Assembly: GCA_039028615.1 (NCBI GenBank)
Contig: JBCCHT010000030.1
Span: forward strand, 28,151 to 92,150
DNA length: 64,000 bases
Direction: 5' to 3'
Origin: Myxococcota bacterium
GTDB lineage: Bacteria > Myxococcota_A > Polyangia > Nannocystales > Nannocystaceae
In this document: positions 1-45,601 of the stretch, piece after piece
Position numbering within the stretch: the stretch's first letter is position 1
How the letters are laid out: the number at the start of each line of letters is the position of its first letter
The notes under the pieces: generated by a model
The model's input: the letters and a program-made list of their open reading frames with translations, nothing else
What the model was told of the DNA's origin: nothing
The model's database searches: none
Program-made: the position numbers and the translations under genes

Positions 1-589
1 TCACCACGCCATCGTCACTTCGCATGATGTTGGCCGGCTTGAGATCGCGATGCACCAGCCCCTCGAGGTGCGCCGCCATCAAGCCCCGCCCCGCCTGCAC
101 GAAGGCCTCGAGCACCGCCCACCGATCGGGCCGACTCTTCAGCCAGGCCTTCATGCTCTCGCCGCGGATGTACTCCATCGCCAAGAAGAAGCGGCCGTCG
201 CTCTGCCCGACTTCGTGCACGGTGACCACGTGGGGGTGGGATAGGCGCGCCAAGGCCTGGGCCTCGCGTTGAAAGCGTCGCTGGTCCTCCTCGTCCGTGA
301 ACTCGTCCTCGAGCAGGATCTTGATCGCCACCTTGCGATCGAGTTCCTCGTCGTACGCGGCGTAGACCAGGCCCATCCCGCCCCGGCCGATCTGCTCGAG
401 CACGAGGAAACGGCCGATGCGTTCGGCCGTGGGCTCGGCGGAAAACAGGCGCTCTCGCACCTTGTCGGCGATGACCTGCTGGGTATTCGTGCCTTCGGCC
501 GAGCGTCCGGCGACCGGTGTGGCCCCCGCTCCGCCCTCTCCAGCCTGCAACGGGATGGTGGCAGAGTTCGATTCTTCCGACGATGCCAC
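1..589 (-). CDS. Ser/Thr protein kinase (Hanks-type), partial: N-terminal part in window, C-terminus lies beyond window start
   Basis: Manual minus-strand translation (frame absent from ORF track because no stop inside window) gives ...RIGRFLVLEQIGRGGMGLVYAAYD..VAIKIL..LSHPHVVTVHEV..LAMEYIRGESM..LVHRDLKPANIM; upstream in-frame stop at 635-637; probable GTG start at about 589. Confidence 0.8.
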   Translation of the reverse strand, partial: MASSEESNSATIPLQAGEGGAGATPVAGRSAEGTNTQQVIADKVRERLFSAEPTAERIGRFLVLEQIGRGGMGLVYAAYDEELDRKVAIKILLEDEFTDEEDQRRFQREAQALARLSHPHVVTVHEVGQSDGRFFLAMEYIRGESMKAWLKSRPDRWAVLEAFVQAGRGLMAAHLEGLVHRDLKPANIMRSDDGVV

Positions 590-643
590 CGCTTTGATGA
601 TCGCAGTTTTCGTGGTCCGCGAAAAGCAACTACGCTAGCCCCC

Positions 644-844
644 ATGCCCCCCGCGTTGAACGATGAACAACGGGTGAAGTTCTGGCGCCTGTTTCTGCTG
701 GTGGGCTCGATGATGCTCGGCTTGCTGACGCCTTCGCTCATCGAGCGCTTCCAGGCCGGCACCGCCGAGGCCATCCACTACGCGCTGCTCGGCGGGCTCG
801 TAGCGGTGGTGGGCTGGTCGATCTGGTCGATACGCCGCGGCTGA
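644..844 (+). CDS. small hypothetical membrane protein (66 aa, two hydrophobic helices)
   Basis: ATG at 644 inside ORF 269..844; segments FWRLFLLVGSMMLGLL and LLGGLVAVVGWSIWSI; no family recognised. Confidence 0.3.
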   Translation: MPPALNDEQRVKFWRLFLLVGSMMLGLLTPSLIERFQAGTAEAIHYALLGGLVAVVGWSIWSIRRG

Positions 845-854
845 GCCGAGCGCC

Positions 855-2387
855 TCACGAAGACCCGAATCGGGCCCGGAAGTCCAATTCGACGTCATCG
901 GCGAACCCGGTCACGATCGGGTGCTGGTCGCTGGAGACGATCATGTACACGTTCGCCGACTTGGGGTCGTTGAAGGTCCGCGTCTCCGGGAACGTGGTCT
1001 CGGAGTCGACCTCGAACAGCTCGATCGACGCCGTACTCGGGTGCTCGATGACCACGAAGTAGCTGGGGGTCCCCGCCCCGATGATCGTCTGATCTTCGAC
1101 CTCGAAGATCGCCTGCGTGTTGCTCGGATCGTGTCGCTCCGGCAGCCGGTACTTGGCCAGGAAGAACCCGATGCTCGCGTTGGGCAGCGAGTTGCTCCCG
1201 CTCACCCAGGTAGAGTCGTTGTTGTTCAGCTCCCCGGTGTGAAGGGCGTCGGCCGGGACCTCGAAGGTCGGGACCTCGAGGATCGTGCGCGTCGGCTGCT
1301 CGATGTCGTAGATCGGCAGGTAGCCCGAGTTCAGCCAGTCGCCGAGCACCAGGTGCGCCCCGAACTCGGTGACCACGCCCTCCATGCCGACCTCGTCGTC
1401 GCGCTCGCGGGAGACCAACGCCGCGAGCTGATCGACGATCCACGAGGTCTTCGCGGGCGCCGTGGTGATGAAGGAGGTGAATGCGGTGGGATAGGCGCGA
1501 GCCAGCCACATCCAAAAGGGCAGCGTCGGGTAGCCCTGGGCGGGCTTCGTGCGGTTGGCCAGGCGGATGTCGTTGGGCCGATCGAACCATGAGGTCAGCG
1601 TCACCGGGTTGGTGAGCGCCGAGTTGCCGTCGAGCTGCGAGAACTCGAGCTCGGCCCACACCGCCGTGCCCTCGAGGATCCAGTAGGTCAGCTGCTTCGT
1701 ACCCGCGTGGGTCACCGACACCGACCACCCGCAGCCGAACTGATAGGCGTGAAAGGCCTCGTGGGTCACGAATCCGTCGCGCGCGGCGGGGTTGCTGTCG
1801 TTGCGCATGAAGATGTCCGCATTGAAGTGGATCGTCTTCGTGGCCGCGTCGGCATACATGGCCGAGGTCGCGTCGAAGTAGGCCTTGCCCGAGCTGCCCC
1901 AGCCGAACTTGGTGCCGAAGGTGTCCACGAACCGCTGGATCACCCGATCGATGGTGTCGGAGACCCGCTGGGCGATGGCGGTCGTCACCGCGTTGCGCCC
2001 CGACGTCGCGTAGTAGACGGTGAAGAACCGGCCCTTGATCGACCGCAGGTCGCCCGCTTTGTCGCTTCGACGGGGCGCCTCGTAGTCGCGACGCTGCGCC
2101 GAGGAGAGCCCTTCGAGCAGCTCGGACATGCGCGCCCAGGCCGTCGTGCCGTGCACCGTCTTCCCGTTGCCGATGTCCCGCGCGGCGGTGCGGAAGTACT
2201 TGCGCAGGCGCGCGAGCTCGGTGGCCACCCCGGTGGGGATCGCGGGCGTCTTCCGCCCGGACTTGGCCGCGGTCTTTTTCTTCTTGGCCTTGCGAGTGCC
2301 CGTCGTTCGCTTCTTCCCGGCCTTCTTGTTCACCGCCTTCTTCTGTGCGGTCTTCTTCTTCGCGGTCTTCTTCTTCGCGTTCGCCAT
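855..2387 (-). CDS. hypothetical protein with Lys-rich histone-H1-like N-terminus and central HExxHxxQ putative zinc-metallopeptidase-like motif
   Basis: ORF 855..2420; likely start MANAKKK (aaggac upstream); N-terminus AKKKTAKKKTAQKKAVNKKAGKK; motif FVTHEAFHAYQFG encoded at 1749-1763. Confidence 0.6.
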   Translation of the reverse strand: MANAKKKTAKKKTAQKKAVNKKAGKKRTTGTRKAKKKKTAAKSGRKTPAIPTGVATELARLRKYFRTAARDIGNGKTVHGTTAWARMSELLEGLSSAQRRDYEAPRRSDKAGDLRSIKGRFFTVYYATSGRNAVTTAIAQRVSDTIDRVIQRFVDTFGTKFGWGSSGKAYFDATSAMYADAATKTIHFNADIFMRNDSNPAARDGFVTHEAFHAYQFGCGWSVSVTHAGTKQLTYWILEGTAVWAELEFSQLDGNSALTNPVTLTSWFDRPNDIRLANRTKPAQGYPTLPFWMWLARAYPTAFTSFITTAPAKTSWIVDQLAALVSRERDDEVGMEGVVTEFGAHLVLGDWLNSGYLPIYDIEQPTRTILEVPTFEVPADALHTGELNNNDSTWVSGSNSLPNASIGFFLAKYRLPERHDPSNTQAIFEVEDQTIIGAGTPSYFVVIEHPSTASIELFEVDSETTFPETRTFNDPKSANVYMIVSSDQHPIVTGFADDVELDFRARFGSS

Positions 2388-6998: not shown

Positions 6999-7919
6999 AT
7001 GAGCACTCGAGGGTTCCTGCTCGTGATCGGGGCCGCAGCCGCGGCCGGCATCGCCTTCGTCGTGCTCAGGGCCCCGCGCTCGCTCGAGATGAAAGTCCCC
7101 GGGCCCTGCGAGACCCGCCATACGGTCAGCTACCCCGACACCGACCTTCCTCCCGTGCCCCCCGAACGCATCGTGCATCGCTACGACGCCGCGGGCCGGC
7201 TGGCACTGGAGCAGCGTATGAACCAGGGCGATTCGATCGCCCAGAGCACGCGCTACGAGTACGACGAGGCCGGCAACCGGATCCTCGAGGAGCACACGCG
7301 CCCCGGGCCGATCCAGGTCACCGCGGCCGACGGCACCACGACCACCGAGACCAACCAGATCATCCGCTCGCGCTGGACCTACGACGCCGCCGGTCGCAAG
7401 GTCACCACCACCTTCGACGAGGGCGAAGGCACCCCGCCGACGCTGCACACCGTCCACGCCTACGACAAAAACGGCCACGAGCGCAGCACCCACAGCGAAC
7501 GCGAGGGCGGCAAGAGCAGCGACACCGACCTCGAGGTCGACGACCAGGGACGCGTGCTCACCCGGACGAGCCGCGGCAAGTCCCACCCCATGCAGCGCTT
7601 CACCTACGACGCCGACGGCAACCTGCTGCGCGACGCCGAGGACTACGACTCCGACGGGAAACCCGATCGGACCCTCGAGCACAGCTACGACGACGCGGGC
7701 CGGCACCTGCGAACGGTGGAGACCCTCCACCTGGGCAAGGGCGTGGTGGAGCGGCGGGAACGAACCTGGACCTACGACGACGCAGGCAACCCGCTCGAGC
7801 TACGGGAGAAACTGCTCGAGTCACCGGACGGCGGGAGCCTGCTGGTCGTCGAGACCCTCGACTACTCGTGCTGGACAGTGAAGGACGGCGTCGCGATCGA
7901 CGAACGCGGCGCCCCCTGA
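6999..7919 (+). CDS. short YD-repeat (RHS-family) protein with N-terminal TM/signal segment
   Basis: 306 aa; repeats YDAAGR, YEYDEAGNR, WTYDAAGRK, YDKNGHE, FTYDADGNL, HSYDDAGRH, WTYDDAGNP. Confidence 0.75.
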   Translation: MSTRGFLLVIGAAAAAGIAFVVLRAPRSLEMKVPGPCETRHTVSYPDTDLPPVPPERIVHRYDAAGRLALEQRMNQGDSIAQSTRYEYDEAGNRILEEHTRPGPIQVTAADGTTTTETNQIIRSRWTYDAAGRKVTTTFDEGEGTPPTLHTVHAYDKNGHERSTHSEREGGKSSDTDLEVDDQGRVLTRTSRGKSHPMQRFTYDADGNLLRDAEDYDSDGKPDRTLEHSYDDAGRHLRTVETLHLGKGVVERRERTWTYDDAGNPLELREKLLESPDGGSLLVVETLDYSCWTVKDGVAIDERGAP

Positions 7920-7937
7920 ACGGACGGCGGAAACGAC

Positions 7938-7967
7938 AAAGAGCCGGCCTCGGGAGGCCGGCTCTTT
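7938..7967. terminator. bidirectional intrinsic-terminator-like hairpin between convergent genes
   Basis: perfect 12-bp stem aaagagccggcc / ggccggctcttt with 6-nt loop tcggga, followed by gtt; lies between stop 7919 (+) and stop 7989 (-). Confidence 0.55.
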
Positions 7968-7988
7968 GTTCGAGGCTCGTGAGCCCGA

Positions 7989-10421
7989 CTAGCTCGGGAG
8001 CTCGGGGAAGAACAGCAGGGTCTTGTCGGTGGTGGTGGTCGGACCCACCGTCACCGGGCGACCGGCGCGGAAGATCCACTGCACGGTCCACTCGTACTCG
8101 TCCTGCCCGGGGCCGCCCCGCGGCACTCGCCAGTTGAGCGGCTCGGTGGGCGTGCTCATGTAGACCTTGTCGAGCGAGCCGTCGATGCCGTCGGGCGCGT
8201 TGGGGTAGTCGAGCTTGACCCGAACGCCACGCAGACCGTCGGCTTCGAAGTCGGTGGCGACGTGCACGGTGACCTCGAGCATGCCGTTGGTGAACACGTC
8301 GCCCACGTTGAGCTGGCTGTCGCCCGTGGTGCCCTCGCGCTTGCCCACCGTGCCGTCGCGGAAGAAGTAGTTGATCGAGTACGTGAACTGGACCGGATCG
8401 CCGGACGCGGGGTTGGGCACGGCCCAGCTGCCCGAGGGGCTGCCCGGGGTGAGCTCGAAGACCTTACTGCTGGCGCTGTCGTCGGCGCCCGTCTCGACCT
8501 CGACCACCGCCTTGGTGTAGCGACCGAGCGGATCGAGCAGCTCGAGGCGCAGCTCGGTGATCCCCTCGGGGTTGGCGTCGAGCAGCACGGTGTCGGAGCC
8601 GAGACGCTTGAGCGCCTCGACCTCGCGACGGGTGCCGTCGGTGTAGTGCCAGGTGCCCTCGACCTGCCAGTTTGCCGCCCGGGACCCGGGACGGATGGGC
8701 ACGTCGACGGAGGTAGAGCCGGACTCGAGCTTGAAGGCCCGACGCTCGGAGCCGAACACCACCGCGCCCTCGAACAGGCGGGTGCGCTCCCAGTCGACGC
8801 GGCCGGCCTCGACCTTGGCGAAGACCATGGGCGAGTGCGCCTCGGGGTCGACCTCGAGGTGCCGCGTGGTCGTCGGGACCCAGTCGCTGACCGTCTGCGA
8901 CTCGTCCTCACCCAGCGCGAAGCCAGCGACGTGGTTGAGGGTCACGCGGTAGCTGATCTCGCGCGAGCCGTCGCTGTCGACGGCGAAGCTATAGGCGTGC
9001 TCGCTCTCGTCGGACTCGAGCACGGCCTCGGAGGAGCGCACGTCGGCGCTGCCGTACTTGACCTCGACGATCATCGAGGAGATGCCGCGCTCGTCGAGCT
9101 TGGCGTTGGTGCGAACCTTGCCGGAGATGTCGCGGAAGAAGGGGTGATCGAGGTCGGCCTCGAGCACGAGGCTCTTGGGGTCGACCGAGCCGCTGAGCGC
9201 GCGCAGGGTGCCCTGCGGGGCGAAGGAGCGGGTCGCCGCCGAGCTGCCCTTGGTTTCGTAGGTCACCGTGCGCAGCTCTTGCTGCTGCAGGCGCCGCAGC
9301 ATGAAGCCGGCCTGGGGCCGCCCCGCCTGGTTCCAGCGCTCGACCGCGGTGGGCTGGCGCGGCGTATTGGAGCCGCTGTTGTTGCCCGAGCCGTTCCCGG
9401 CGTTGTTGCCCGAGCCGTTCCCGGCGTTGTTGCCCGTGAGCCCGCCGCTGACGTTCGCGGTGCCTTCGACGACGTTGCTCTCGCTCCCCGAGTTGCCCGA
9501 GTCATCGCCCGAGCCCGGCGGGGTCAGGACCAGCGGCGTGGTGAAGCCGGCCGTATTGCTCGTGGCGTCGGTGGTCGCGTCGTAGATCGACATCGTGCCG
9601 CGATCGGCCGCGAGCACGGTGCCGGGGTTGATGGACGGCGAGAAGAAGTTGCCGGCCGCCAGCTCTTTGGCCAGGGCCTCGAGGCGCGTGCGCTCGGCCG
9701 CGACCTTGTCGGGCTCGAGCCCGACGAAGTCCTCCTGCTCGATGACGATGGCCTCCTCGCGCTGGAGCTTCTCGAACTCCTGATCCATGTCCGCCTTGAA
9801 GACCAGGGTGTTGGCCTGAAAGCGGTTGCGCAGGTGGTTGTAGGTCTGCTTGAAGTCGATTTTGATGTTGCCGCGATAGGTCGGCAGCATGCCCTTGAAC
9901 TGGAGGTCGTAGACCACCGACACGGGCAGCGCCCCCGGCTCGAGGATGGCCGCGCGCATGATCAGCGCCCCGCGGTGGCTCAGCTCCACGGAGAATGTGG
10001 CCCGGTTGTCACCATAGAGGGCGGGCTTGGCCGAGCCGATCACGCTCTCGATGAACAGCGACGCTTCTTCCTGGCCTTGCTGAAAGCCCAGCGTCGACAG
10101 CCGCACCGAGCCCCCCTCGAGCTGCACGGGCGAGACCGAAGCCGTGCCGCCGACTCGACTCGACAGCTCGGACTCGAGCTCTTCGATCTTGCTCTTGCTG
10201 ATCCCGAGGTCGACCGTCAGATCGAGAAAGCCACCGCCCGGCGCATCACCATCGCTGCGGTCCTCCATGGCCTTGCGATAGACGACGAGTCGAAACGCGA
10301 TGCCGTCGCCCAGCTTGGCGATCCGAGGCGCACCCGGCATGTAGTAGAAGAGACGCGGGTTGCTGTGGTCGCGGTAGACCACGATCCCGCCAAGCTCCAT
10401 GGGGCTGTCGAGAGAGAGCAT
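7989..10421 (-). CDS. large hypothetical protein (810 aa), no signal peptide, central Asn/Gly-rich low-complexity linker
   Basis: long ORF with protein-like composition; GNNAGNGSGNNAGNGSGNN linker; no recognisable catalytic motif. Confidence 0.6.
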   Translation of the reverse strand: MLSLDSPMELGGIVVYRDHSNPRLFYYMPGAPRIAKLGDGIAFRLVVYRKAMEDRSDGDAPGGGFLDLTVDLGISKSKIEELESELSSRVGGTASVSPVQLEGGSVRLSTLGFQQGQEEASLFIESVIGSAKPALYGDNRATFSVELSHRGALIMRAAILEPGALPVSVVYDLQFKGMLPTYRGNIKIDFKQTYNHLRNRFQANTLVFKADMDQEFEKLQREEAIVIEQEDFVGLEPDKVAAERTRLEALAKELAAGNFFSPSINPGTVLAADRGTMSIYDATTDATSNTAGFTTPLVLTPPGSGDDSGNSGSESNVVEGTANVSGGLTGNNAGNGSGNNAGNGSGNNSGSNTPRQPTAVERWNQAGRPQAGFMLRRLQQQELRTVTYETKGSSAATRSFAPQGTLRALSGSVDPKSLVLEADLDHPFFRDISGKVRTNAKLDERGISSMIVEVKYGSADVRSSEAVLESDESEHAYSFAVDSDGSREISYRVTLNHVAGFALGEDESQTVSDWVPTTTRHLEVDPEAHSPMVFAKVEAGRVDWERTRLFEGAVVFGSERRAFKLESGSTSVDVPIRPGSRAANWQVEGTWHYTDGTRREVEALKRLGSDTVLLDANPEGITELRLELLDPLGRYTKAVVEVETGADDSASSKVFELTPGSPSGSWAVPNPASGDPVQFTYSINYFFRDGTVGKREGTTGDSQLNVGDVFTNGMLEVTVHVATDFEADGLRGVRVKLDYPNAPDGIDGSLDKVYMSTPTEPLNWRVPRGGPGQDEYEWTVQWIFRAGRPVTVGPTTTTDKTLLFFPELPS

Positions 10422-23271: not shown

Positions 23272-26200
23272 ATGGCGAGCATGCGAGGGGGAACACGAGG
23301 CCAGCGCGCTTTCGGACTCTTGGGATTGGTGGTGGCGGCCTCGTTGCTGCCCGACTCGGCCCAGGCCCAGGTGGCGGTCACCCGCACCCGCTTCGAGCTG
23401 CCCGCGTCCAACGGCTACGGAGCGATCATCCTCAACCTCGACGCGGGCGACCCCGGGCAATCGCGACGGCTGGTCCACTTTCGCGAGCACCTGTACGCGG
23501 TCGAGGAACCACAGCTCGACACCCGCGGCCACGAGATCTGGAACGGCGGCGACTTTGCGGCGGTCTACACCCGCGACCTGCTGTTCGACGCGTACTTCGG
23601 TCTGCGTGACGGTGGCGGCCAGGCCTGGCTGACCACGGTGCCCGTCGACTTCGACGCGAGCGGCTACGCGGGCTGGCAAGAGGGCGAGACGGGCGGCACG
23701 GGCCTGGTGACCATGGTGCAGACCATGGGCTCGCTCGAGGCCACGCAGTACTTCTTCACCCCGGTCGAACTCGAGGCCAACGCGTTCGTCATGGCGATGC
23801 GCGTGCGCAACGTCGGCGGCAACACGGTGCCCGACGCCCAGGCGTTCTCGCTGCACAACTTCCACCTCGGCTACGGCCGCGCCCAGTCGCCCTGGGAGGT
23901 CCAGCAGGACATCGGGGAGAACGGCGAGACGCTCCTGTGGGACGGCAGCGGCGGCGGAGCGGCCTATACCGAGCGCGGCTTCGCGGGGGTGATGGCGGTG
24001 CGGGCCACGGGCAACGTGGCGCACTACGGGGCCGCACCTGCGGTCAACGTGTACGCCATCGTCAACGACGGCGGCACGACCGATCTGCCCGACAACCCCA
24101 CCCCCGACATGGCGGTGGACGGTGCGACCGGGGCCCTCCAATTCGACCTCGGAGACCTCGGACCCGGGCAAGAAGCCTGGGTCGCGGTGACGGTGGTGCA
24201 CCACGGCGATCCGCAAGCGGGCGCCGCCGCGCTCGGCCTGGCCGACGCGTGGATCGACGGCCGCGACGCGCAAGCGCTCGTGCAGGACGAGATCGACGGC
24301 TGGGCCGACTTCCAGGCCACCGTCGAGCTGCCCGCCGATCTCGATTCCTACGAAGAGACGCTGACCCGGCACAGCGCCACGATGCTGCGCATGGGGCAGG
24401 TGCAAGAAGACGAGAGCTACCTCCGCGAGTGGCTCACCCAAGACGGCGAGCCTCGTCGCACCCGCTTCCCCAGCCCCGACGCGCCCACGGCCCTGCCCGG
24501 CGTGGTGCAGCACAACGGCCGCGGCGCGGTGCTGGCCAGCCTGCCTCCCGGCAACTGGACCTACGCGTGGATCCGCGACGGGGCCTACGCCACCGTGGCC
24601 ATGGCCGTGCTCGGCATGGTGCCCGAGGCCCGAGCCGCGCTCGAGTTCTACCTCGAGGCCGAGGCCGGTCGCTTCGTCGACTGGTCCGAGCTCGACGGCT
24701 ACGACATGCCCGACTACCAGATCTCGCTGGTGCGCTACTACGGGTTCGGCGTCGAGGAGACCGACTTCAATGCCTTCGGGCCCAACCTCGAGTTCGACGG
24801 CTTCGGGCTGTTCTTGTGGGCGCTGCGAGCCTACGAGCAGCAGACCGGCGACGAGGCGCTGGCGGCCGAGTACTGGCCGGTCATCTCCGAGCGCATCGCC
24901 GACGTGCTGGTCGCGCTGGTCGACCCCGCGACCGGGCTCATCCGTCGCGACTCGTCGATCTGGGAGAGCCACTGGGAAGGGCGCGAGCGCTACTGGGCGT
25001 ACACCACGATCACCGCGGTGCGAGGGCTCTGTGACGCGGCCGCGATCGCCGACCGCCTGGGCGAGGCCGAGCAGGCCGAGACCTACCGCAGCACCGCGCT
25101 GGGATTGCGCGAGGCGATCGTCACCCAGCTGACCGATTCCAACGGCGCCATCGCGTCGAACCTCGAGGAGCTGGAGTCGGGCCAGGGCTACTGGGACGCC
25201 GCGGTCATCGACGCCGTCGCGATGGGGCTGTTCGATCCGCAGGGCGAGATCGCCAGCGCGACCCTGGCCGGGCTCGATGCCAACCTGCTCACCCCCGCCA
25301 GCGAGGTCGGCTGGGCGCGTAACGACGACGACACCGACCACGAGGGCGCCAGCGATCTGAGCCCCTGGGGCAGCGTCTACGACGCGGTGGAGTGGGTGAT
25401 CACCGACCTGCGCGGCACCATGGCCTGGCGCGGGGCGGGCGACGAGGGCCGGGCGGACGCGATCCTGCAGTGGATCCTCGCGCAGTCCCTGGCGAACTAC
25501 CTGATGGTAGCCGAGACCTTCGACGCCAACACGGGGACCTACGAGAACAACACGCCGATGCTCGGCTTCGGGGCGGGCGCCTGGGCGCTCGCGCTCGCCC
25601 ACCGCGAGGGTGAGTTCCAGGACGCCGCCTGTGGTGAGTTCTGGGAGGGCGGCGACGGAGGCACCGGGGGCGACGACACCTCGGGCGACGAGACGGCCGG
25701 CGACGGCGGTACCGCGACGAGCGGAGCCGCCGACTCCACCGGCCAAGACGACGACGGAGAGACGCAAGGGATGAGCGGCAACATCACCAGCGAGGGCGAC
25801 GGGGTCACCGATCCGGGCTTCACCGGGGCGGGCTCGGAGAGCGGCGGCACCGGGTGCAGCTGCACGACCACGGGCGAGGGCACGGGGGGCTTCGGCGCGC
25901 TGATCCTCGGCCTGCTCGGCCTGGGCTGGCGACGACGACGTCGCGTGCTCGCATTGGCGGGAGCGACCGCGATGCTCGGTGGATGTGCCGATGATGCCCC
26001 CACCCCCGCGGGCGGCACGGGCACGGGCGAGGCCGCCACCACCCTGCCGTTGTCCGGCAATACCGAGACGACCGACACCCCGCCCACCACGGGCCTCGAC
26101 GACACCACCACCGCCGTCGATCCGACCGGGGGCGGCGAGGACATCACCCCGGTCGAGCTGTGCCCGACCGAGTTCACGTTCTCCCCCAGCGGCAGCGTGT

Positions 26201-28290
26201 CCAACGTGAGGCTGGTGCACGAGGCCCAGAGCTTCGACCTGGCCACCGCGGTGGCCATGAAGGAGGCCGGTGGCGGCTACGAAGCCACCGTGGACCTGCC
26301 CATCGGGCTCAATGCCTACAAATTCGTGTACGACCAGGGCGGCGAGCAGAACTGGGTCTTCGATCCCGAGCAGGCGCGCCGCAAGTACGTCGACGGGGTC
26401 GAGAACTCGGGCGTGCTCGTGCCCGACTGCAACCTCCCGCAGCTGCACGTGCAGACCAGCGAATCGGGCTACGAGGGCCCCGACGCGGGCACCTACGACG
26501 CTCAGCTCAGCTACCGAGACGGCTTTCATGCCTTCGGCGCCGACCCGGACGCCTACGAGATCGTGCTGCGTCACGCGAGCACCGAGCGTGCTCTGCTGCC
26601 CGAGGAGATCACCATCGAGGAGAGCGGCGACGTCACCTTGTCGTTGTCCGGGCTGGAAGATGGCAAGCACACCGTGGTGCTCGTCCCCGTCGACCAACGC
26701 TCGCAGCGGGGCGAGCCCGTGCGGCTGGTGTTCTGGGCCGAGGCGGAGCCCTTCTCCTGGGAGGACGCGCTCGTCTACATGGTCGTCACCGATCGCTACC
26801 GCAACGGCGACCCGAGCAACGACGGGCCCGTCACCCCCGGTGCCGATGGCCCCGGCGACTGGTTCGGCGGCGACCTCGAGGGCCTGCGCCTGTCCATCGC
26901 CGAGGGTGAGCTCGATGCCCTGGGCGTGCGCGCGATCTGGCTGACCCCGTGGCAGACCAACCCCGTCGGGGGCTACGCCGCCGCCGATGGCATCCACACC
27001 GTCACCGGGTACCACGGCTACTGGCCGACTCGCGCCCGCGAGGTCGACCCGCGGCTCGGCGGCGAAGAGGCTCTACGCGCGCTCGTCGACGAAGCCCACG
27101 CGCACGGCATCCGCATCCTGCAGGACTACGTCATCAACCACGTGCACGAAGAGCACGAGTACGTCGCCGAGCACCCCGACTGGTTCCGCACCGGGTGCGT
27201 GTGCGGAGGCGACGGCTGCGGCTGGACCGAGGCCGCGCTCTACTGCCTGTTCCAGCCCTACATGCCGGACATCGACCACTCCGTGCCCGAGGCCAACGCC
27301 CAGTTCGTCGAGGACGCGGTGTGGTGGGTCGACGAGTTCGACCTCGACGGACTGCGCGTCGACGCCGTCAAGCACGTCGAGGAGGTCGCCACCCGCAACA
27401 TCTCCGCCGCGATCCGCGAGACCTTCGAGCAATCGGGGGCCCACTACTTCCTCATGGGCGAGACCGCCATGGGGTGGAACAACTGCGCCGACCCCTGCAA
27501 CGACGAGAACTACGAGACCATCGCCCGCTACGTCGGCCCGCACGGCCTCGATGGCCAGTTCGACTTCGTGCTCTATCACGCCGCCTCCTACGGCGTGTTC
27601 GGCTACTCCGACTACGGGATGATCCACGCCGACTACTGGTTCAACCACGGCCAAGGCAAGTGGCCCGAGGGGTCGATCATGACCCCGTATATCGGCAGCC
27701 ACGACACCCCGCGCTTCTCCACCCTCGCCGACTATCGCGGCCAGGACCCCGGCCATGATCGCGGCATCGCCCACGTCCAGTGGGGAGACATCGCGCAGGC
27801 CCCCGGCGACGACGAGCCCTATTGGCGCACCCGGGTCGGCTTCGCCTGGCTGCTCGGCCTGCCCGGTGCTCCGCTGCTCTACTACGGTGACGAGTACGGC
27901 CAGTGGGGCGGCGCCGACCCGAACAACCGCATGATGTGGCGCCCGCCCGGCGAGCTGAACGCATGGGAGACCGAGACGCTCGCCTTCGTGCGTACCCTCG
28001 GCCAGCTGCGGCAGCAGATCCAGCCGCTGCGGCGCGGTCGCTACGTGGGGCTGTGGGCCACCGAGGACGCGCTGCTCTTCGGGCGCATGGAAGACCCGGG
28101 CGAGGCCGCCATCGTCGGCGTCAGCCGGGCCGCCACCGCGCAGGAGCACACCTTCTCCGTCGTCTCGCTCGGCTTCCTCCCCGGCACCATGCTGAGCGAC
28201 GCGCTCGGCGGACCGGGTGCGATGGTGGCCGGCGACGGTACCGTCACCGTCACCGTGCCCGCGCGCGGGGCCGTGATCTTGGTGCCGTAG
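23272..28290 (+). CDS. 1672-aa secreted multi-domain glycoside hydrolase: GH15 (glucoamylase/glucodextranase-like) domain + Gly/Asp-rich linker + internal MYXO-CTERM-like/TM hairpin + CBM48-like module + GH13 alpha-amylase-family catalytic domain
   Basis: signal peptide MASMRGG..AASLLPDSAQAQ; NWTYAWIRDGAY (GH15-like); GCSCTTTGEGTGGFGALILGLLGLGWRRRRR; YKFVYDQGGEQNWVFDP (CBM48-like); GH13 regions DYVINH, GLRVDAVKH, GETAMG, GSHDTPR. Confidence 0.85.
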   Translation: MASMRGGTRGQRAFGLLGLVVAASLLPDSAQAQVAVTRTRFELPASNGYGAIILNLDAGDPGQSRRLVHFREHLYAVEEPQLDTRGHEIWNGGDFAAVYTRDLLFDAYFGLRDGGGQAWLTTVPVDFDASGYAGWQEGETGGTGLVTMVQTMGSLEATQYFFTPVELEANAFVMAMRVRNVGGNTVPDAQAFSLHNFHLGYGRAQSPWEVQQDIGENGETLLWDGSGGGAAYTERGFAGVMAVRATGNVAHYGAAPAVNVYAIVNDGGTTDLPDNPTPDMAVDGATGALQFDLGDLGPGQEAWVAVTVVHHGDPQAGAAALGLADAWIDGRDAQALVQDEIDGWADFQATVELPADLDSYEETLTRHSATMLRMGQVQEDESYLREWLTQDGEPRRTRFPSPDAPTALPGVVQHNGRGAVLASLPPGNWTYAWIRDGAYATVAMAVLGMVPEARAALEFYLEAEAGRFVDWSELDGYDMPDYQISLVRYYGFGVEETDFNAFGPNLEFDGFGLFLWALRAYEQQTGDEALAAEYWPVISERIADVLVALVDPATGLIRRDSSIWESHWEGRERYWAYTTITAVRGLCDAAAIADRLGEAEQAETYRSTALGLREAIVTQLTDSNGAIASNLEELESGQGYWDAAVIDAVAMGLFDPQGEIASATLAGLDANLLTPASEVGWARNDDDTDHEGASDLSPWGSVYDAVEWVITDLRGTMAWRGAGDEGRADAILQWILAQSLANYLMVAETFDANTGTYENNTPMLGFGAGAWALALAHREGEFQDAACGEFWEGGDGGTGGDDTSGDETAGDGGTATSGAADSTGQDDDGETQGMSGNITSEGDGVTDPGFTGAGSESGGTGCSCTTTGEGTGGFGALILGLLGLGWRRRRRVLALAGATAMLGGCADDAPTPAGGTGTGEAATTLPLSGNTETTDTPPTTGLDDTTTAVDPTGGGEDITPVELCPTEFTFSPSGSVSNVRLVHEAQSFDLATAVAMKEAGGGYEATVDLPIGLNAYKFVYDQGGEQNWVFDPEQARRKYVDGVENSGVLVPDCNLPQLHVQTSESGYEGPDAGTYDAQLSYRDGFHAFGADPDAYEIVLRHASTERALLPEEITIEESGDVTLSLSGLEDGKHTVVLVPVDQRSQRGEPVRLVFWAEAEPFSWEDALVYMVVTDRYRNGDPSNDGPVTPGADGPGDWFGGDLEGLRLSIAEGELDALGVRAIWLTPWQTNPVGGYAAADGIHTVTGYHGYWPTRAREVDPRLGGEEALRALVDEAHAHGIRILQDYVINHVHEEHEYVAEHPDWFRTGCVCGGDGCGWTEAALYCLFQPYMPDIDHSVPEANAQFVEDAVWWVDEFDLDGLRVDAVKHVEEVATRNISAAIRETFEQSGAHYFLMGETAMGWNNCADPCNDENYETIARYVGPHGLDGQFDFVLYHAASYGVFGYSDYGMIHADYWFNHGQGKWPEGSIMTPYIGSHDTPRFSTLADYRGQDPGHDRGIAHVQWGDIAQAPGDDEPYWRTRVGFAWLLGLPGAPLLYYGDEYGQWGGADPNNRMMWRPPGELNAWETETLAFVRTLGQLRQQIQPLRRGRYVGLWATEDALLFGRMEDPGEAAIVGVSRAATAQEHTFSVVSLGFLPGTMLSDALGGPGAMVAGDGTVTVTVPARGAVILVP

Positions 28291-44468: not shown

Positions 44469-45533
44469 TCACGATCGCCTGCGGCGGCGGCGGACGAACA
44501 CGAACACCACCGCCCCCACACCAACCACCAGCAACACCAACTCCAGCGGAATCAGCAACGGCTTGGTCACCGTGCGCACCACCGGCTCGGGATGGACCTC
44601 GGCATCATCGGGCGCCCGATCGAAATAAAGCTCGACGTCGGGCGGTCGCGGGTTCGAGTGGTCGAAGAAGATCGTGAGGTACGGCGACTTCGGCAACAGG
44701 CCGGGCAAGAACCGCTCGATGTCATCGGCGGCCAGCGGCTGGGCGACGATGGTCTCACCCGCCCACGCGCCACCGCCCTCGAGCGTGCCCTGGTAGCGTC
44801 CCTCGGCGATGAAGAACACCCGCAGCATTCGCTCGGGCGGCAGCTCGCCCTCGCGCTGGGCCTTGGGCTCCCGGTACGGATACACGGCACGCTCGGTCGC
44901 AAAGGTCATGCGCACGGCGGAAGTGCTGAGACCGGACTGACCTTCGGGTCGCGCGAGCTTGAAGGCGGTGAAGGTCCAGCCCTGCTCGACATAGGGCTCG
45001 GCCCACGCGGTGAGCGAGTCGGAGCTTTGGTAGCCGTTGTCGCCGAGCCACTTCACGAGGGCGGCGGGGTCGTCGGCCGCGAGCACCACCGCGTCGTAGC
45101 CCCCGACCATCTGGTGCCGAAGGACCTGCACGCCGGCTTCGCCCGCCTTGGCGCCGTCGGCCGTCATGGCCCAGAACAAGGAGCCGAACTCGATGCCGGA
45201 GGTCTTGCGCCGGGTGACGACCCGCGGGCGAGTGCGCCACTGGAGGTTGCCGAACAAACCGTTGTCGGCTTCGGCCAGCTCGGGAGGGCTGGGCGTGGGC
45301 ACGATGAAGCCGAAGCCCTCGGCCTCGGTCTCGAAGTCGGCGCGGCGGATGAAGTGCTCGAGCTTTCGCTCGGCGTCCCAGACGATCACGGCCTCTTCGC
45401 CGGCGATGGTGACGTCGTAGCCCTCGGGTGGCGCGGGCGCGCAGGCGCGAGTCGATCGGGGGGCGAGGCCGAGCCAGCACAGGGCCGTCAGGCACAGCGC
45501 GCCGAGGACCGTCCATCGGGTGGAGGCGAACAT
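44469..45533 (-). CDS. secreted hypothetical protein with signal peptide and C-terminal TM anchor plus poly-Arg tail
   Basis: N-terminal WTVLGALCLTALCWLGLA; C-terminal LVLLVVGVGAVVFVFVRRRRRRS. Confidence 0.6.
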   Translation of the reverse strand: MFASTRWTVLGALCLTALCWLGLAPRSTRACAPAPPEGYDVTIAGEEAVIVWDAERKLEHFIRRADFETEAEGFGFIVPTPSPPELAEADNGLFGNLQWRTRPRVVTRRKTSGIEFGSLFWAMTADGAKAGEAGVQVLRHQMVGGYDAVVLAADDPAALVKWLGDNGYQSSDSLTAWAEPYVEQGWTFTAFKLARPEGQSGLSTSAVRMTFATERAVYPYREPKAQREGELPPERMLRVFFIAEGRYQGTLEGGGAWAGETIVAQPLAADDIERFLPGLLPKSPYLTIFFDHSNPRPPDVELYFDRAPDDAEVHPEPVVRTVTKPLLIPLELVLLVVGVGAVVFVFVRRRRRRS

Positions 45534-45601
45534 GGAAGACCCATCCTATCGCCCCGAAACCAACCCGTGGGGCGCGATGAACACCGAATCGGGGCCGTCG
45601 T

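Follow-up and report, generated by a model that had tools for sequence, protein, structure and literature searches.

A stretch of 64,000 nucleotides from the genome of a Myxococcota bacterium of the family Nannocystaceae (hereafter, the window; G+C content 67.6%) contains a plus-strand open reading frame (ORF), 23272..28290, that encodes 1672 amino acids (aa) plus a stop and combines, as a single complete fused frame within the 64-kb window, a glycoside hydrolase of family GH15 and an alpha-amylase of family GH13. Between the two modules lie two sorting signals placed back to back, namely, a MYXO-CTERM tag and, directly after it, a lipoprotein-signal-like segment that ends in a lipobox. A preliminary description of the window, compiled without database searches, reported this ORF with the same succession of enzymes and signals, all of which are indeed present, and the junction peptide it quoted is exact.

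A conserved junction of two sorting signals

The MYXO-CTERM tag at the junction comprises a Cys motif, CSC (aa 862-864, nt 25855-25863), a hydrophobic helix, GGFGALILGLLGLGW (aa 872-886, nt 25885-25929), and the Arg run RRRRR (aa 887-891, nt 25930-25944). The curated NCBIfam profile TIGR03901 aligns with aa 859-891 over positions 2-34 of its 34 positions, scoring 27.1 bits with a 140-aa fragment and 31.4 bits with a 56-aa fragment, against a cutoff of 20. The Cys motif, the helix and the Arg cluster are those of ordinary MYXO-CTERM proteins, but there, as in the unfused relatives described below, the tag is located at the extreme C-terminus, whereas here 781 residues follow the Arg run.

The segment downstream of the tag fits the core of the PROSITE lipobox pattern PS51257, {DERK}(6)-[LIVMFWSTAG](2)-[LIVMFYSTAGCQ]-[AGS]-C, as LAGATA-ML-G-G-C, with Cys905 as the terminal Cys. 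The position rule of this pattern (Cys at residues 15-35, Lys or Arg among the first seven) fails when counted from the N-terminus, the Cys being residue 905; counted from the first Arg of the run, however, C905 is at position 19, so that the rule holds only with the Arg run as the n-region. Residues 887-891 double as the n-region of the second signal. The segment shares the lipobox, the hydrophobic core and the basic n-region with Sec/signal peptidase II lipoproteins (Lgt, LspA, Lnt), and standalone GH13 orthologs belong to that type, with the equivalent of C905 being the lipobox Cys of the N-terminal signal peptide in the unfused orthologs; the signal here differs in being internal, about 890 residues from the N-terminus, and in borrowing its n-region from the tag. 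On the Kyte-Doolittle scale, the MYXO-CTERM helix ranks first in hydrophobicity among the 13-residue windows outside the signal peptide, and the second junction segment is exceeded by only two such windows in the protein.

A homolog search over 5.8 billion proteins yielded, besides an identical NCBI entry (P0001), 21 full-length or near-full-length fused homologs with 57-77% identity (P0003, at 75%, among the orthologs) and one with 38% identity; their sources are NCBI, JGI, ENA and Logan assemblies. One fused member (L006) resides on an 11.1 Mb contig (ctg36761, ENA ERZ28496113). The complete junction, that is, CxC, helix, Arg run, second core and lipobox Cys, is retained in every fused homolog. 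In an alignment of 21 sequences (A1), the only invariant columns in the Gly/Asp/Thr-rich linker region of about 170 residues are C862, C864, R889 and C905; G861, R888, R890 and R891 are conserved in at least 90% of the sequences, and the rest of the linker is unconserved. All 23 fused members possess the three junction cysteines (C862, C864, C905) and carry the lipobox Cys 15-34 residues past the first Arg; 21 of the 23 fit the PS51257 core, and the TIGR03901 profile matches 17 of 20 homolog junction segments (E ≤0.01). The junction is real and is conserved far beyond chance.

Two curated models of other kinds also touch this region: among the 20 junction segments of a second alignment (A2), NCBIfam NF058595 ('lipo-invert putative C-terminal anchoring domain') weakly matches two, and the LptM signal-plus-mature model matches one. 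These models seem to capture related Cys-plus-helix anchors.

The modules flanking the junction (Table 1) carry intact catalytic signatures. At the end of the N-terminal signal peptide and just past it, conservation in A1 reaches 90% or more at A32, Q33 and V34. The GH15 profile PF00723 scores 47 bits (cutoff 22), and the motifs WIRDGAYA, SSIWE(565)xHW and AE(748)T are invariant in the 21-sequence alignment; from these motifs, we take E565 and E748 to be the catalytic pair. A PDB sequence search with the GH15 half gave no match. The GH13 profile PF00128 scores 104 bits (cutoff 22), conserved regions I-IV are intact (DYVINHVH, GLRVDAVKH, GETAMGW and GSHD), and D1285/N1289/H1290, R1362/D1364/K1367/H1368, E1397 and H1477/D1478 are invariant; the closest solved structures are the alpha-amylases 4e2o and 5a2a-c (E-values 1e-44 to 1e-41). 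The CBM48 module of the preliminary description holds at the level of the fold and not at that of the profile. PF16561 remains below threshold in the window protein (16.1 bits vs a gathering score of 26.8; 25.6-26.5 bits in homologs P0012 and P0009). The AlphaFold model of aa 958-1165 (pLDDT 94) contains two beta-sandwiches, the first of which is matched by Foldseek to the glycogen-binding CBM48 domains of AMPK beta (4yee, 1z0m, 2f15) with target TM-scores of 0.75-0.83, root-mean-square deviations of 2.0-2.2 A and 24-26% identity. The CBM48 assignment is one of fold only, and glucan binding by this domain is putative.

Table 1. Layout of the fused protein (nucleotide positions in the window)
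Feature	Nucleotides	Residues	Strand	Remarks
Sec signal peptide	23272..23367	1-32	+	Arg-rich n-region, AFGLLGLVVAASLL core, AQA-Q cleavage motif
GH15 module	23368..25641	33-790	+	PF00723 catalytic match aa 417-658 (nt 24520-25245)
Linker 1, Gly/Asp/Thr-rich, low complexity	25642..25845	791-858	+	no conserved columns in A1
Internal MYXO-CTERM	25846..25944	859-891	+	full-length TIGR03901 match
Lipoprotein-signal-like segment VLALAGATAMLGGC	25945..25986	892-905	+	hydrophobic core VLALAGATAML; lipobox to Cys905 (nt 25984-25986)
Linker 2, Thr/Gly/Pro-rich, low complexity	25987..26154	906-961	+	would tether the mature lipoprotein
CBM48-fold beta-sandwich, starch/glycogen-binding type	26155..26436	962-1055	+	predicted structure
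Second Ig/FnIII-like beta-sandwich	26437..26751	1056-1160	+	AlphaFold secondary structure; weak Pfam Big_13 match
GH13 alpha-amylase catalytic domain	26782..27909	1171-1546	+	PF00128
C-terminal amylase beta-domain	27910..28290	1547-1672 plus stop	+	NCBIfam and Pfam matches, here and in homologs

Unfused relatives and the history of the fusion

One genome per species was scanned with the family alignment, and the loci were classified by tblastn. Seven loci, in Nannocystaceae and unclassified Myxococcales metagenome-assembled genomes (MAGs), are fused single ORFs (L006-L010, L033, L042), and nine consist of adjacent GH15 and GH13 genes, in this order and on the same strand (L027, L028, L029, L032, L040, L041, L044, L049, L052); a tenth two-gene candidate, L046, is too frameshifted to interpret. 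In the two-gene loci, the GH15 product ends with CxC, a helix, RRR, a short tail and a stop, whereas the GH13 protein opens with a lipoprotein signal peptide, for example, MKLSRGSSVWLACVSALWLAAC followed by SGD, or, in another unfused ortholog, MSRRRFAFLITWVSTAVLLAMPLAC followed by GND. The start of the GH13 gene overlaps the stop of the GH15 gene as ATGA or GTGA in eight loci, the ninth having GTGATG, and is preceded, in the split loci, by a GGAG-type Shine-Dalgarno (SD) sequence at a distance of 6-12 nt, for which the duplex energies range from -5.8 to -10.3 kcal/mol. Each gene also occurs on its own: standalone GH13 genes (Sorangium, Polyangium, Nannocystis pusilla and others) begin with lipoprotein signal peptides, and standalone GH15 genes that end in MYXO-CTERM and have no GH13 neighbour were found at L001-L005, L012 and L083. 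A GH13 gene directly downstream of the closest GH15-only relatives (L001-L005, L012) was looked for, and none was found.

Given these two-gene and standalone forms, the proposal of the preliminary description that two genes merged through the loss of a stop holds up, and the merger of two formerly separate, translationally coupled genes into the fused one appears well supported by the sequence comparison. The route, however, had been misjudged. With stop and start overlapping, the two frames are offset by a single base. An indel of this size at the A/GTGA overlap removes the stop and joins the genes, and it would be the simplest path to the fusion; the earlier statement that the junction is 'not a simple single-base frameshift' is misleading in this light. 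The associated claim that no stop occurs in any nearby frame is incorrect, both other frames having stops within about 60 nt of the junction, and has no bearing on the result.

The same overlap is what lends some appeal to the idea that an indel error or a recent inactivation joined two genes and left a non-functional product, because a single-base indel there would give exactly such a fusion, and two fused loci do look suspicious. At L042 (~8161-8340), in a nanopore MAG, a GGAGGAG remnant of the SD, the tail and the n-region are all kept, and the locus reflects an indel error or, if the fusion is genuine, a very recent event; at L033 (~7800-8100), the Arg run is lost and the GH13 frame is broken, so this copy is probably decaying. 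The main clade is different: its 23 sequences, which come from independent projects and technologies and have diverged to 57% identity, keep both frames, the catalytic motifs and both sorting signals intact, and one of them lies on the 11.1 Mb contig mentioned above. A stop after the Arg run in the orthologs, which according to the preliminary description would have exposed an error in this genome, is not seen; 22 homologs are fused, and the error reading fails. An assembly or sequencing error in the window gene was rejected on the basis of this conserved fused clade, and we consider an artefact or a dying gene extremely improbable.

Neighbour-joining (NJ) trees, which carry no support values, were built for both halves of the protein, and those of the GH15 and GH13 halves agree. 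The window protein and its 22 homologs form one fused clade in these trees, which implies, to the extent that the topology can be relied upon, one old fusion that was retained. L007 (the same as P0023) and the L033/L042 pair are fused and yet nested among two-gene loci, implying further independent fusions, at least two or three in total. In the main clade, the early-branching members P0017, P0018/L009 and P0021 have a long loop with two Arg clusters, the state expected soon after fusion, whereas in the crown, which includes the window protein, the loop is contracted to a single Arg run common to both signals.

Several features of the relatives stand apart from this history. At L002/L003 (562-3974, minus strand), a distantly related, unfused GH15-MYXO-CTERM gene has in its vicinity genes for an ABC ATPase with TOBE domains and, upstream on the other strand, for a LamB maltoporin and an unrelated GH13 amylase; these neighbours support the view that the GH15 family acts on maltodextrin or starch. 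At L016 (5677-10769), in a Polyangiaceae MAG, the order is reversed, with a lipoprotein GH13 preceding a GH15-MYXO-CTERM gene, and such an arrangement cannot yield the hairpin by fusion. Long frames upstream of some GH13-only genes (L015, L020, L043, L045 and L085) were considered as other fusion partners and rejected as Arg-rich high-GC noise, the real lipoprotein start being near the lipobox. The GH13 half (aa ~965-1670) has relatives with about 40% identity in marine group II archaea (L053-L081, Poseidoniales/'Methanobacteriota' MAGs); a Verrucomicrobiales MAG (L082) is a further locus of this set. In the species-genome scan, the archaeal relatives rank above most bacterial GH13s, which suggests inter-domain transfer of this amylase type.

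Predicted processing of the fused chain and its alternatives

We propose that the protein is a natural polyprotein that would be split into two lipid-anchored enzymes by the MYXO-CTERM/myxosortase pathway and by the Lgt and LspA steps of lipoprotein maturation, and assign to this reading a probability of roughly 0.6. Under this scheme, the N-terminal signal peptide would direct the chain to Sec and the GH15 module would cross the inner membrane until transfer is stopped by the MYXO-CTERM helix (aa 872-886), with the Arg run (887-891) remaining in the cytoplasm. Residues 892-904 would then restart translocation as an internal signal that uses the same Arg run as its n-region, forming a tight membrane hairpin and leading to the export of the CBM48-GH13 part. 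Lipidation of Cys905 by Lgt and cleavage in front of it by LspA (signal peptidase II) would free the mature lipoprotein amylase, which, with Ala at position +2, would probably be routed to the outer membrane. The GH15 half would be left with its MYXO-CTERM tag plus a short hydrophobic extension and is predicted to be lipidated at the motif Cys, cut by the myxosortase (MrtX) and carried to the cell surface. Processing at the Cys motif by the myxosortase has been described for TraA and MXAN_4924 (PMC11980579).

The strongest sequence argument for processing over mere anchoring is the invariance of C862, C864 and C905 within a linker that otherwise drifts freely: anchoring needs no cysteines, so both sites are likely to be processed. 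The unfused relatives encode exactly the two predicted products, and the hairpin topology is consistent, as an inference, with hydropathy and the positive-inside rule. The outcome would be the same pair of starch/glycogen-degrading lipid-anchored enzymes that the ancestral operon produced, now fixed at a 1:1 ratio, and because the products would be the same, the fusion would be tolerated, could recur and would persist.

The preliminary description envisaged that the hairpin, with RRRRR in the cytoplasm, could display both catalytic domains outside. The topology fits the hydropathy profile, but uncleaved display is less likely than dual processing. The corresponding alternative, a bifunctional enzyme in which the hairpin anchors both modules on the periplasmic side of the inner membrane and neither signal is processed, accommodates the topology and the hydropathy equally, fused bifunctional glycosidases are common, and the case for cleavage is itself an indirect one drawn from sequence. 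It does not account for the cysteines, which anchoring would not require and which are invariant in the 21 aligned sequences, or for the maintenance of both the lipobox pattern and the MYXO-CTERM profile. Placement at the periplasmic face of the inner membrane would also give no access to extracellular polymeric starch or glycogen, whereas the design of the unfused relatives points to display at the surface or in the outer membrane. We regard the uncleaved enzyme as quite unlikely.

A number of observations weigh against the polyprotein reading. Both the LspA cut at an internal lipobox and the MrtX cut of a tag that precedes a second helix are steps that we infer, and the searchable literature yielded no report of processing at a natural internal lipobox. 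The hydrophobic segments of the junction are short (15 and 13 residues) and Gly-rich, as judged by Kyte-Doolittle hydropathy only, and in several homologs one of the two is not the top-ranked hydropathy window. In the groups closest to the main fused clade, its immediate sisters, GH15 and GH13 are encoded at unlinked positions, and the overlapping-pair ancestor of this clade is accordingly a parsimony reconstruction on unbootstrapped NJ trees. Finally, in three of the seven fused loci with DNA (L006, L008 and L010), an ATG or GTG accompanied by a G-rich stretch resembling an SD lies within the Arg run or just before it.

The last observation bears on the possibility that the GH13 lipoprotein is made mainly from a start near the junction, with the read-through product being minor or irrelevant. 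The window gene has in-frame GTG-892, TTG-895 and ATG-901; L010 (V-RRRRR-GVLAAALVVAAC) and L008 (MLLRRRARVL..) would give good signal peptides from such starts; and many Myxococcota genes are independent of SD sites. Supplementary internal initiation thus may occur in some orthologs (L006, L008, L010). For the window gene, the internal start suggested in the preliminary description is poorly supported: GTG-892 and TTG-895 have no SD (-1.9 and -1.7 kcal/mol, compared with -5.8 to -10.3 in the split loci), and the in-frame starts would yield a signal peptide lacking a basic n-region. A conserved internal start or SD was tested for across the fused loci and rejected: candidate start positions are not conserved, L009 and L007 have no suitably placed start bearing an SD, and the crown clade has deleted the ancestral n-region and tail. 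Moreover, without a stop, every ribosome that translates GH15 continues into GH13, so that the polyprotein is made regardless. On these grounds, internal initiation as the main source of the amylase seems unlikely.

Similar junctions, known systems and genomic context

A 57-position junction profile (alignment A2), run against 1.84 billion representative proteins, produced 385 matches at E ≤0.001. Among the top 150 matches, 87 have an ordinary tag at the C-terminus. In 29, an internal tag precedes a hydrophobic core and a lipobox Cys; in 20, it precedes a signal of the signal peptidase I (SPase I) type (AxA-Q); and 3 have an internal tag of another kind. The proportion of internal tags is inflated because the profile rewards the second signal. 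With a stricter pattern, 26 complete junctions of the lipobox type were recovered, each flanked on both sides by 80 residues or more. These connect a trypsin-like protease with an unknown or C-type lectin module (six clusters), FG-GAP with IgGFc-binding modules (two clusters), VanY with a C-type lectin, and an unknown module with cytochrome c, and are also found in DUF11 and beta-helix proteins. The SPase-I-type junctions occur in He_PIG/CARDB repeat proteins of 2000-4000 aa (P0047, P0048, P0053-P0058, P0060, P0064, P0066, P0068 and others), which probably belong to the MXAN_5598-like type discussed below. In all, about 50 other protein clusters, whose architectures are unrelated, carry the same hairpin; the named sources are Nannocystaceae or Myxococcales, and one cluster was seen in six independent assemblies.

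Two cases have a link to the window family. P0177, a second and unrelated hairpin polyprotein in which FG-GAP repeats, the junction and an IgGFc-binding module follow one another, is encoded on the same 11.1 Mb contig as L006, the 75%-identical ortholog of the window protein, so that the lineage with both seems prone to such fusions. P0036 (1126 aa) is a GH15 relative in which a MYXO-CTERM tag (CAC..helix..RARR) is continued in frame by VMRIHHLLVPLVSLTAALLFADALRA, followed by EASP and an Endonuclease I domain (PF04231); it represents the same upstream family joined to a different secreted partner through an SPase-I-type signal. As a tentative generalization, on which we would lean slightly to the side of doubt, Myxococcota might harbour a recurrent and as yet essentially undescribed class of 'sorting-signal hairpin' polyproteins, in which a tag that abuts the SPase I or signal peptidase II signal of the next protein is handled by two intramembrane proteases, the myxosortase and LspA, to give two separately anchored envelope proteins, with repeated origin by one-base indels at overlapping stop and start codons and retention for 1:1 co-delivery.

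Internal sorting tags that result from gene fusion are already known. In HVO_0405 of Haloferax volcanii, a centrally placed, tripartite PGF-CTERM tag undergoes ArtA-dependent cleavage in vivo that gives separate N- and C-terminal parts (PMC7157517; the primary study is ref 46 of PMC11980579). The likeness to the window protein lies in the internal tag produced by gene fusion, whereas the protein is archaeal, with a PGF-CTERM tag, the ArtA enzyme and Tat-dependent export; it is described there as strain-specific, unlike the window fusion, which is conserved across a clade, and a lipobox signal peptide after the tag is not reported in the available text. Closer to the window protein is MXAN_5598 of Myxococcus xanthus, a probable fusion resembling the overlapping traA/traB ORFs, for which processing of the N-terminal part has been proposed (PMC11980579). 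It comes from the same phylum and has the same internal MYXO-CTERM tag, but joins an adhesin to an outer-membrane beta-barrel/OmpA protein rather than two enzymes; its downstream signal is not described as being of the lipoprotein type, and the case is a bioinformatic remark only (PMC11980579). That account comes without conservation, phylogeny or two-gene intermediates, all three of which are available for the window family; orthologs in the form of two adjacent genes, the first ending in the tag, as pertinent to fusions of the HVO_0405/MXAN_5598 type, are represented here by the nine two-gene loci. PulA provides a precedent for a surface-displayed lipidated starch-debranching enzyme (PMC11980579).

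Several literature searches returned nothing of the same kind. Haft's myxosortase preprint contains no mention of internal or fused tags. In the searchable literature, we found neither a tag paired directly with a lipoprotein signal peptide so that one Arg run serves both, nor clade-wide conservation of such a fusion, two-gene intermediates with A/GTGA overlaps or recurrence of the hairpin in multiple families, nor anything on lipoprotein polyproteins. A functional parallel from a different setting is the cytochrome b-c1 gene fbcH of Bradyrhizobium japonicum, whose membrane-inserted precursor is reportedly split at an internal signal peptide into two mature proteins; it is said to differ in relying on signal peptidase I, not II, in lacking a C-terminal sorting tag and in yielding respiratory products.

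If the proposed processing takes place, these proteins would be natural reporter substrates for the myxosortase and LspA, with a large size shift upon cleavage of the kind exploited with HVO_0405 for the archaeosortase; such a size-shift assay would ease the study of the lipidation and cleavage steps of MYXO-CTERM. They would also show, in a natural setting, whether a signal peptide that lies about 900 residues from the start of a chain is accepted by Lgt and LspA. More generally, overlapping stop and start codons would make operons for secreted proteins prone to fusion, which would be tolerated when each signal works alone. Under the scheme, Nannocystaceae-like myxobacteria are expected to display an endo-acting amylase together with an exo-acting GH15 enzyme on their surface.

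The fused gene is probably monocistronic because the genes on both sides of it are on the opposite strand. A starch-utilization cluster around it was sought and rejected, none of the neighbours, which encode an Lhr helicase, an alpha/beta hydrolase and a Ser/Thr kinase, being of this kind. Neither mrtX nor any other internal MYXO-CTERM tag was found in the 64-kb window. A DUF2330 protein (window 44469-45545, minus strand) ends with a hydrophobic helix plus RRRRRRS and has no Cys motif; this tail is a tail anchor that resembles a sorting tag and lacks the MYXO-CTERM signature.

Annotation is affected as well: proteins of this type are named only 'alpha-amylase family glycosyl hydrolase', and their mature products, localization and starts are mispredicted. 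The NCBI entry that is 100% identical to the window protein (P0001, 'MAG: alpha-amylase family glycosyl hydrolase [Myxococcota bacterium]') is annotated as one coding sequence (CDS), with a model of 1652 aa that starts 20 codons downstream of ATG 23272 and thus skips window positions 23272-23331. With this start, the Sec signal peptide loses its n-region and the greater part of its hydrophobic core, whereas the longer model that begins with ATG 23272 agrees with the signal peptides of the homologs.

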